From the IMG/VR virus record IMGVR_UViG_2703718805_000010: DNA of 12,579 nt; one strand, written 5' to 3'. Below are positions 8,424-9,280 of the stretch, one piece after another; the stretch's first letter is position 1, and each line of letters starts with the position of its first letter. Below the pieces are notes generated by a model. That model was not told where the DNA came from. It was given only the letters and a program-made list of their open reading frames with translations, and did no database searches. The DNA comes from a virus (lineage: Duplodnaviria; Heunggongvirae; Uroviricota; Caudoviricetes). The position numbers and the translations under genes are program-made.

Positions 8424-8514
8424 AAAACTCTCCTGTTATTTCGAGCAGAAGGGTAACAATAGTTACATAACAATGTCAACCATAGCAACATCACTTGGTG
8501 GTAACATTGGTTAC
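8424..8514. promoter_or_regulatory. divergent promoter/operator region of the immunity switch
   Basis: 91-bp spacer between the divergent starts. Two 14-bp palindromes: GTAAC-aata-GTTAC (8453..8466) and GTAAC-attg-GTTAC (8501..8514, abutting the repressor ATG), centres 48 bp apart. A TTGACA -35-like hexamer is on the minus strand (8483..8478). Exact -10 elements not resolved. Confidence 0.55.
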
Positions 8515-9189
8515 ATGAAAAACACTATCAGCGAACGTATTCGGAATCGTCGAAAAGACGTTGGATTAACCCAACAGCAGGTTGCGAAAGCAATCGGCAT
8601 ATCTCGTGTATCCGTAACAAAATGGGAAAATGGCTCTTCAAAACCTGACGGTGAGAATTTGTATCTACTGTCAAAATTGCTTTCCAAATCTCCTGAATGG
8701 ATTCTTTATGGAAAGGACGGTCACGATAAAACCGATGATCTGCGTCTGAATCAGTACCCTTACATTAGTGACAACATCGCCCGGTTGCCCGTTTTAACGT
8801 GGGAACAGGCTGGTTATTGGGATATGAGTTGTCCAGTAACCAAGATTCCTGGTATTAAGAACTGGGTTGATGTCATGACAAAAACCGCTGAAAACTCTTT
8901 TTTATTGCATGTTGAGGGAGATGCGATGACAAACTCTAACGGCCTCCCAACCATCCCCGACGGATCTACCGTGCTGATCACACCATGCTCAAGTAACATT
9001 AGAGAACTGGTGGGAAAAATAATCTTAATCCAATTGGAAGGAACGCCAAACGTAACACTAAAAAAAGTTGCGATTGACGGACCAAACATCTATCTGTTGT
9101 CACTGAATCCGCTTTACAAACCCATCGAACTGAATGGTGGTTACACCATTAAAGGTAAAGTTTCACAAATACATCAATACTTAGACTGA
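8515..9189 (+). CDS. prophage repressor: DicA-like XRE HTH N-terminus fused to a CI/LexA S24-like C-terminal domain with Ser-to-Ala at the catalytic position
   Basis: N-terminus MKNTISERIRNRRKDVGLTQQQVAKAIGISRVSVTKWENGSSKPDGENLYLLSKLLSKSPEWILYG is collinear with recalled DicA. C-terminus aligns with lambda CI (VEGDAMT versus VEGNSMT; TLKKV versus FTFKKL; LNPLYKPIEL versus LNPQYPMIP). Start at 8515 is preferred because the track TTG start at 8416 overlaps the cro-like start and the operators; ATG 8473 is an alternative. Confidence 0.8.
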   Translation: MKNTISERIRNRRKDVGLTQQQVAKAIGISRVSVTKWENGSSKPDGENLYLLSKLLSKSPEWILYGKDGHDKTDDLRLNQYPYISDNIARLPVLTWEQAGYWDMSCPVTKIPGIKNWVDVMTKTAENSFLLHVEGDAMTNSNGLPTIPDGSTVLITPCSSNIRELVGKIILIQLEGTPNVTLKKVAIDGPNIYLLSLNPLYKPIELNGGYTIKGKVSQIHQYLD

Positions 9190-9194
9190 GTCAG

Positions 9195-9219
9195 AACCCG
9201 CATTCATTGCGGGTTTTTT
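9195..9219 (+). terminator. intrinsic terminator after the repressor gene
   Basis: Hairpin AACCCGCA-ttcat-TGCGGGTT (9195..9215, 8-bp stem) followed by a T-run (9214..9219), 6 nt after the repressor stop. Confidence 0.75.
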
Positions 9220-9251
9220 ATGCCCTCAAATGTACCTTTTGCAACATTGTA

Positions 9252-9280
9252 TTGACTCGAAAGGTAACTCTTGTTACCTT
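9252..9280 (+). promoter_or_regulatory. candidate dicB-operon promoter with overlapping operator palindrome
   Basis: TTGACT -35-like hexamer (9252..9257) followed by the 16-bp perfect palindrome GGTAAC-tctt-GTTACC (9263..9278), same half-sites as the two operators upstream of the repressor. The -10 is not clear (TACCTT at 9275..9280 is weak). Confidence 0.5.

Follow-up and report, generated by a model that had tools for sequence, protein, structure and literature searches.

Probable operators of a P22-type immunity region

The 12,579-bp stretch of Caudoviricetes DNA analysed here (hereafter the window; IMG/VR record IMGVR_UViG_2703718805_000010) carries a prophage repressor gene and a divergent cro-like gene, and the palindrome GGTAAC-N4-GTTACC is repeated on both sides of the repressor gene. 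These repeats are best explained as the operator set of an ordinary lambdoid, P22-type immunity region of an Escherichia coli prophage, predicted to be bound by the repressor and by Cro, and we place the probability of this explanation at about 0.88. The type of system is already known; what is new is the operator sequence, which is a new specificity of the P22-type immC region. A sequence-only reading of the window had proposed three GGTAAC-N4-GTTAC(C) palindromes, and an exact-match scan of the whole window bears out both the sites and their coordinates: GTAACNNNNGTTAC is found at 8453–8466, 8501–8514 and 9264–9277 and nowhere else. By chance GTAAC-N4-GTTAC is expected a mean of 0.01 times, and none of 200 dinucleotide-preserving shuffles reached three matches.

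The layout is that of a P22-type immunity region, since the divergent repressor and cro genes flank repeated sites and the same operator is repeated at the left operator (OL), beyond the repressor gene and over the predicted promoter PL. This supports the assignment of the three palindromes as the predicted operators OR1 and OR3 (in the right operator, OR, between the two genes) and OL1. The earlier set of three sites stands, but it overlooked two degenerate copies, OR2 and OL2, which bring the number to five. The putative operators (no strand is assigned to these palindromes), the promoters predicted around them and the two regulatory genes are as follows:

8452–8467: OR1 operator, GGTAACAATAGTTACA, exact match to the core
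8475–8490: OR2, degenerate operator, GTCAACCATAGCAACA, 6/10 core positions, overlaps the PR −35
8500–8515: OR3 operator, GGTAACATTGGTTACA, exact match to the core; it ends with the A of the repressor ATG
9231–9246: OL2, degenerate operator, TGTACCTTTTGCAACA, 7/10 core positions, upstream of the PL −35
9263–9278: OL1 operator, GGTAACTCTTGTTACC, a perfect palindrome
8474–8479, minus strand: predicted PR −35, TTGACA, 6/6 match to consensus
8450–8455, minus strand: predicted PR −10, TACCCT, 18 nt past the −35; the outer half of OR1 contributes to it
9252–9257, plus strand: predicted PL (dicBp-equivalent) −35, TTGACT
9275–9280, plus strand: predicted PL −10, TACCTT, 17 nt past TTGACT
8502–8507, plus strand: candidate −10 of the repressor maintenance promoter (PRM), TAACAT, inside OR3 and 7 nt ahead of the ATG
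8515–9189, plus strand: prophage repressor gene, 224 aa, Pfam HTH_3 and Peptidase_S24
8208–8423, minus strand: cro-like gene (lytic repressor), first in the PR operon, Pfam P22_Cro, E = 7.5e-15

The OR2 centre lies 23 bp from that of OR1 and 25 bp from that of OR3, or about two helical turns in each case, and the centres of OL1 and OL2 are 32 bp apart. GTCAACCATAGCAACA was assigned as a weak OR2 because relatives show clear sites at the same middle position, and TGTACCTTTTGCAACA as OL2 because relatives show good copies upstream of the PL −35. No convincing third OL site is present in the window; GTTACCTTAACAAC at 9274 matches at only 6/10 positions.

The promoters were read by hand and are backed by their conservation in relatives; the palindromes lie on these predicted PR and PL promoters. 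The operator appears to be set in the same register at both, because at both it begins 5–6 nt past the −35 and the TACC of the −10, which has the form TACC(C/T)T, comes from the operator's outer half-site. The third palindrome had been described as overlapping the TTGACT hexamer (9252–9257); it in fact starts 5 nt downstream of the hexamer, occupies the spacer between −35 and −10 and extends into the latter, TACCTT (9275–9280). The PR −35, TGTCAA on the plus strand, is invariant in the clade to which the window belongs, and the other clade has AGCAAA at the same position. Nearly all relatives for which the OL region was available have TTGAC(A/T/C/G) between OL2 and OL1 (TTGATC in locus L093), and the other clade has TACATT at the position equivalent to the PL −10. 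An AGGAG Shine-Dalgarno sequence stands 6 nt ahead of the cro ATG. The geometry at PR matches that of lambda, but OR2 and OR3 lie nearer the start of the repressor gene than in lambda, by about 10 bp.

Repeats of this kind might instead be chance palindromes, weak RNA hairpins or sites of the element's own restriction-modification system, with no role in repression. A 5-bp stem could fold in principle, and the window contains a DNA methyltransferase-like open reading frame (ORF) at 2672–3796 (judged by eye from its translation). Only 0.01 matches are expected by chance, though, the sites occur only at two promoter regions, and their positions are kept in phages of Pectobacterium, Pantoea and Klebsiella (compared across the immunity region only); a 5-bp stem with a 4-nt loop would also be too weak for a terminator. 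We regard this alternative as effectively refuted.

Conservation of the sites in relatives

An IMG/VR protein scan with the repressor returned 80 copies at 99–100% identity, which are too alike for comparative footprinting, and a scan of genome contigs with it gave only two irrelevant Firmicutes helix-turn-helix (HTH) matches; diverged relatives and their DNA were taken from a protein search and contig look-ups. Thirty-three distinct OR regions, whose repressors are down to 42% identical to that of the window, were compared. All 33 align without gaps, with three 14-mers that start 23 and 25 bp apart and variable DNA between them, and in all 33 the last 14-mer touches the ATG. OR2 is better formed in relatives than in the window, for example CAAACAAAAGTTAC, or GTCAACCATGGTTACA in L089.

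Close relatives recovered with their DNA have repressors 89, 88, 70 and 66% identical to that of the window. They keep the OR1 core, including its spacer and the first two flanking bases (GTAACAATAGTTACAT; further flanks vary), as well as the TGTCAA −35 and a GTAAC-N4-RTTAC-ATG block, in surrounding intergenic DNA that has diverged. OL1 is kept after a TTGAC-type −35 in the three relatives with a comparable OL region; in the 70% identical Salmonella relative the DNA beyond the repressor gene is different and contains no OL1 site. At the place homologous to OL2, relatives carry copies that match at 8–10 of 10 positions (L093 has the perfect GTAACAATAGTTAC and AH07 has GTAACTAAAGGTAC), and most relatives for which the downstream region is available show the terminator, OL2, the −35 and OL1 in this same order. 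The same layout is found with repressors that are only 42–43% identical to that of the window, in ZF40 (Pectobacterium), AH07 (Pantoea) and ST101-KPC2phi6.3 (Klebsiella), and the recognition helix of these three repressors, SRV(S/T)(V/I)TKWE, is the same as the window's.

The search was also run in the reverse direction, from the operator to the gene beside it. Among 121 exact matches to GGTAAC-N4-GTTACATG in IMG/VR, 39 precede a repressor of this HTH_3 plus S24 family, and two more precede a different, 130-aa HTH repressor with the same operator and layout. In the latter case (L156, positions 615–632, and L168, both in IMG/VR) the repressor of about 130 aa lacks an S24 domain and has the helix SNAAVTKLE, a GGTAAC-N4-GTTAC site adjoins its ATG, and matching sites stand at the positions equivalent to OR1 and OL. 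The GGTAAC-N4-GTTAC operator type would thus be used by a second repressor architecture. Separately, the near-identical prophage L047 (IMG/VR) has GTAACTCCTATCAC as its OL1, in which two bases of the right half-site and one of the spacer are altered, which may reflect operator decay or a partially constitutive PL.

Half-sites change with the recognition helix

Relatives whose repressors have a different recognition helix have different half-sites in a similar arrangement of 5-bp half-sites around 4 central bases. Six helix and half-site pairs were read, and in these heteroimmune relatives the half-site changes with the repressor helix:

Window repressor clade: helix SRVSVTKWE, half-site GTAAC
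mEp390 and Lys8385Vzw: helix NRVTVTGWE, sites GTAGG/GTAAG-N4-CCTAC/CTTAC
Morganella IME1369_02: helix SASAVTQWE, site GTAAG-CTTG-CTTAC
mEp460: helix SDVAVGYWE, site CTAAG-ATTA-CTTAG
Phage 21 (P22-type operators, annotated in its record): helix SNVAISQWE, site TTAAG-N4-CTTAA
Qin DicA: helix SHVSVSQWE, operator TTGTTAGTCATAACTAACAA, experimentally tested (PMC3441716)

Both mEp390 and Lys8385Vzw keep the operator abutted to the ATG and a nearly identical spacing (by our own count, the three starts in Lys8385Vzw are separated by 22 and 25 bp); in IME1369_02 and mEp460 the family-type start codon is further downstream and the abutment is lost. With the conserved 5-4-5 geometry, these pairs, at least six in number, could provide P22-type repressors with a natural recognition code.

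The sites thus exceed chance expectation by far, keep their positions in relatives and change with the recognition helix. Because the half-sites track the helix and because the operator sequence points back to this repressor family in IMG/VR, we consider the predicted operator assignment to be secure short of a binding assay. It is very improbable that the S24 repressor leaves the palindromes unbound and that their sole ligand is the Cro-like protein or some other HTH protein of the prophage. In lambdoid phages, Cro proteins do bind the same operators as the repressors, as in lambda and P22, where the two share their sites, and sequence alone cannot tell which protein is the binder. Against binding by Cro alone, the half-site follows the repressor's own recognition helix across heteroimmune relatives, GGTAAC-N4-GTTACATG predicts this repressor family downstream, and the PL site, far from cro, fits a prophage repressor; repressor and Cro also share their sites in CP-933P (PMC8630535).

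The repressor start codon and transcript

The Prokaryotic Genome Annotation Pipeline (PGAP) starts the repressor at 8473, giving a protein of 238 aa, but the true start is probably the ATG at 8515. The methionine encoded at 8515 is invariant, homologues at ≤52% identity begin there, and in alignments with PDB chains of P22 C2 it falls at their first residues. The few conserved residues of the 14-aa extension (MST, N and Y) are those encoded by the PR −35 (TGTCAA) and the two OR3 half-sites, and the remainder of the extension varies faster than the repressor protein itself. With 8515 taken as the start, OR3 adjoins the ATG, as the sequence-only reading had it for the second palindrome. Were the protein made from 8473, OR3 would be intragenic, repressor bound there could act as a roadblock at most, and the transcript would not be leaderless at 8515. 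PGAP and other gene callers do choose 8473 or a nearby codon, and in every close relative no stop codon interrupts the frame between OR1 and 8515. The invariant methionine, the common beginning of the homologues and the P22 C2 chains, and the exact coincidence of the conserved extension residues with the PR −35 and the OR3 half-sites all argue the other way, as does a GTG at the equivalent codon of L093; no Shine-Dalgarno sequence precedes either ATG, which we also count against 8473. We judge translation from 8473 to be unlikely. Taking 8515 as the start corrects a likely mis-call that has been propagated in RefSeq.

With the repressor start placed at 8515, a leaderless or near-leaderless maintenance transcript, whose promoter would be blocked by repressor or Cro bound at OR3, is somewhat favoured, because the candidate −10, TAACAT, ends 7 nt before the ATG and leaves no room for a Shine-Dalgarno sequence. 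TAACAT, made up of the left half of OR3 and its spacer, is present in 31/33 relatives, and its equivalent is TAGGAT in mEp390 and Lys8385Vzw and TAAGAT in phage 21, despite their different half-sites; the OR1 and OL1 spacers are free of a constraint like that on TAACAT in OR3. The lambda cI message is leaderless. In CP-933P, 5′ RACE showed the mRNA of the repressor PaaR2 to be leaderless as well (PMC8630535). The sequence-only suggestion of autoregulation or a leaderless transcript agrees with the family-wide abutment of operator and ATG and with TAACAT, and we keep it as a prediction from sequence.

Proposed switch and points that weigh against it

In the switch that we envisage, dimers of the HTH_3/S24 repressor would recognise 14–16-bp sites, GGTAAC-N4-GTTACC, through two 5–6-bp half-sites separated by four central bases. 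OR1 would cover the spacer and −10 of PR, which is predicted to drive cro, a ydaT/cII-like gene and replication genes, and the weak OR2, which overlaps the PR −35, would probably be filled cooperatively with OR1; repressor at OR1 (with OR2) would then occlude PR and silence cro, ydaT and the replication genes. OL1 would in the same way cover the spacer and −10 of PL, so that repressor at OL1 (with OL2) would occlude PL and silence ydfABC-dicF-dicB. OR3 would cover the likely PRM −10 (TAACAT) and the transcription start point, the transcript probably beginning at or near the AUG and being leaderless. These sites are also the expected targets of the P22_Cro-family protein, and excess repressor or Cro at OR3 would shut off repressor synthesis, which would provide negative autoregulation and a target for Cro. 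The whole would be a standard bistable lambdoid switch.

Several observations weigh against this picture. OR2 and OL2 are weak in the window (6/10 and 7/10 positions, respectively), and their assignment leans on positional homology. Among near-identical copies the depletion of variable positions within operators is modest, 4/38 inside versus 13/50 outside in the OR region and 8/28 inside versus 21/52 outside in the OL region. A generic sigma-70 scan of positions 8150–9550 called no promoter, because each −10 matches at only 3/6 positions; the missing call counts against strong constitutive promoters but is what one normally sees with lambdoid early promoters read by hand. Upstream of TAACAT no −35 can be recognised. 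With a transcript start at 8515, OR2 would be centred near −32.5; the lambda OR2 centre is at about −42, a difference of ~10 bp, and lambda-style activation of PRM from OR2 therefore cannot be assumed. Literature searches gave no binding, footprint or transcript data for this immunity type, and nothing relevant came from searches on a GTAAC operator or on the cI operators of ZF40.

Comparison with known switches

The immC region of phage 21 (C2, Cro, OR1–3 and OL1–3; P22-type) has the same repressor architecture as the window. The N-terminal domain of the window repressor matches PDB chains of P22 C2 with E about 1e-12, the whole protein shares 36% identity with the repressors of phage 21 and P22 (tblastn), and the window Cro is 46% identical to phage 21 Cro. 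Phage 21 operators, like the window's, have 5-bp half-sites and 4 central bases, with OR centres 23 and 25 bp apart; the last OR operator of phage 21 ends 2 nt before the c2 ATG, and the window OR3 is 2 bp closer. In both, OL2, the −35 and OL1 follow the repressor terminator in that order. Phage 21 differs in its half-site (TTAAG versus GTAAC) and helix (SNVAISQWE versus SRVSVTKWE), in the spacing of OL1 and OL2 (35 bp versus 32 bp in the window, where no third OL site is evident) and in what PL drives, an N-type antiterminator in phage 21 and ydfA-dicB in the window. A further difference is that the catalytic serine of the S24 domain is alanine in the window (below).

The sequence-only reading had likened the layout to repression of PdicB by DicA, and the likeness is apt in that the Qin prophage carries a homologous, heteroimmune system. 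DicA represses dicBp and dicC (PMC10448788, PMC3441716). The downstream operon is the same in Qin, ydfABC-dicF-dicB, and 95% identical from window position 9424 through ydfA; from cro to about 9423 the window holds a different module, unrelated to Qin upstream of 9424. The HTH domain of DicA is 54% identical to that of the window repressor over 70 aa, with homology limited to the HTH, and Qin DicC is 38% identical to the window Cro. Qin dicBp, TTGACC-GATA-TGTTAGTCATGGCTAATC, has the same arrangement of −35, operator (here that of DicA) and −10, and a second operator site stands upstream of its −35 as in the window. DicA itself is a 135-aa protein without an S24 domain, and its operator TTGTTAGTCATAACTAACAA is unrelated to GGTAAC-N4-GTTACC (PMC3441716). 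We considered whether the window repressor is a DicA orthologue that recognises Oc and rejected this, given the HTH-only homology, the different operator and the start of Qin homology only at 9424.

A cryptic prophage of E. coli O157:H7, CP-933P/Sp12, carries a comparable CI/Cro/CII-like switch, PaaR2-YdaS-YdaT, in which YdaT occupies the cII position (PMC8630535) and acts as a CII analogue (PMC8630535). Its palindromic repeats lie over PRM, PR and PL (PMC8630535), like the layout predicted for the window. They differ in being 18 bp long (consensus GTTTAGTAA), with four in OR, and a toxin-antitoxin pair follows the repressor gene; PaaR2 is said to be without sequence similarity to CI. Lambda uses the same logic, with a tripartite OR between divergent cI and cro and operators over PR and PL, and its CI has the same S24 fold (the window repressor aligns to 3bdn, E = 3.4e-14). 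The lambda operators are 17 bp long and unrelated in sequence, and OL and OR are 2.4 kb apart in lambda versus 0.8 kb in the window.

These comparisons leave the understanding of how lambdoid switches work unchanged. What they add is the operator sequence and switch layout, as predicted here, of an unstudied immunity type that is common in pathogenic E. coli prophages, and the operator assignment predicts which prophages should be co-immune. The module controls dicB and dicF, both cell-division inhibitors, and its repressor looks non-cleavable (below), so that it bears on the silencing of cryptic prophage toxicity.

Loss of the catalytic serine

The position of the catalytic serine in the S24 domain is occupied by Ala137 (codon GCG, 8923–8925) in the motif GDAMT (window positions 8920–8931). 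This motif aligns to GNSMT of lambda CI, whose serine we take to be the catalytic nucleophile S149, and to GDSM or GESM in homologues. The codon is GCG in 94 fetched loci of the window clade and GCA in the 70% identical Salmonella relative. Serine is kept in the 88 and 66% identical relatives (L087 and L093) and in all homologues at ≤52% identity in which the motif was found. The loss, TCG to GCG in the window clade and TCA to GCA in the Salmonella relative, appears to have occurred independently. The Ala-Gly cleavage site (QAG) and the lysine (KK) are retained in the window repressor, which thus lacks the complete Ser/Lys dyad of SOS-inducible, self-cleaving repressors of the CI/LexA type. 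Replacement of this serine by alanine abolishes self-cleavage in lambda CI and LexA. The Ser-to-Ala change therefore predicts a repressor that is blind to RecA and insensitive to SOS, and release of repression is probably not by RecA-stimulated self-cleavage.

In this the window repressor would parallel DicA, whose repression is lifted by an antirepressor, Rem, and by DicC-dependent switching (PMC10448788). We tentatively suggest, as a possibility that we hold at somewhat less than even odds, that the module is a domesticated, SOS-blind switch in which the operators and the Ala-Gly site are intact and the catalytic serine has been lost. If so, the dicBF operon for cell-division inhibition and phage exclusion would be freed, as in Qin, through Cro bistability or an antirepressor alone, and DNA damage would not release it. 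The non-cleavable repressor is the sole mildly surprising element of the module.

Genes and distribution of the module

The sequence-only gene assignments (cro-like gene, repressor, ydfA/dicB operon) agree with Pfam and Rfam matches and with PGAP annotation. The remaining features of the PR and PL operons and of the repressor gene are as follows:

7786–8211, minus strand: PR-operon gene of the YdaT family, in the cII position, Pfam YdaT_toxin, E = 2.8e-10
6801–7778, minus strand: replication-initiator-like gene
6048–6794, minus strand: DnaC/IstB-like gene
9195–9219, plus strand: intrinsic terminator of the repressor gene, AACCCGCA-TTCAT-TGCGGGTT, followed by a T run
9462–11113, plus strand: PL operon with ydfA, ydfB, ydfC, an ORF, DicF small RNA and dicB; Pfam DUF1391 and DicB, and PGAP annotation of an identical prophage
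9462, plus strand: start of ydfA
10925–11113, plus strand: dicB
10699–10750, plus strand: DicF small RNA, Rfam gathering-level match, 75.8 bits

The 37-nt stretch at 9190–9226, which contains the terminator hairpin, folds at −15.1 kcal/mol, and a hairpin and T run follow the repressor gene in most relatives; a generic terminator scan of 8150–9550 missed it.

Of 5426 complete E. coli genomes, 702 (about 13%) contain the 1.35-kb module at ≥80% coverage, notably those of Shiga-toxin-producing strains (STEC) such as O26:H11. The top matches are 99.8% identical, and several are O26:H11 strains. A megablast search against isolated phages matched the flanks only and found no sequenced phage isolate with this immunity region, and the closest phage repressor is 43% identical.

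The leader between PL and the first gene (9286–9423, with a core at about 9355–9385) is conserved, also in L094, L096, L221 and others, and is common to phages of different immunity types (ZF40, AH07, mEp460, SfV, ST64B and others). In the clade that does not include the window it is predicted to form a 70-nt structure with two hairpins within a closing stem, with compensatory changes in 5/15 predicted pairs, of which the second hairpin accounts for four; its single-stranded parts include the long invariant runs CCACGAAGUAGCC and GGCGUAAGAA. The window retains only the AAGTAGCC..CCCGAGGCGTAAGAA core, and the covariance model of the leader gave only a partial, non-significant match to it. Nothing in Rfam matched the leader. 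The idea of an RNA like HK022 put was considered, and the covariance model had no significant match in HK022 25000–31000; with gene O starting at 30029, this region should include PL, which was not itself located in it. The leader could be an antitermination or processing element.

Elsewhere in the window, the sok antitoxin RNA of a hok/sok module was found at 3727–3907 on the minus strand (Rfam gathering-level match, 61 bits). The methyltransferase-like ORF at 2672–3796, also on the minus strand, shows the cytosine-5 DNA methyltransferase motifs FCGAGG, PPCQ and ENV, again judged by eye from the translation, and a 337-aa ORF beside it (within 1780–3796, minus strand) may, likewise by eye, be its restriction partner.

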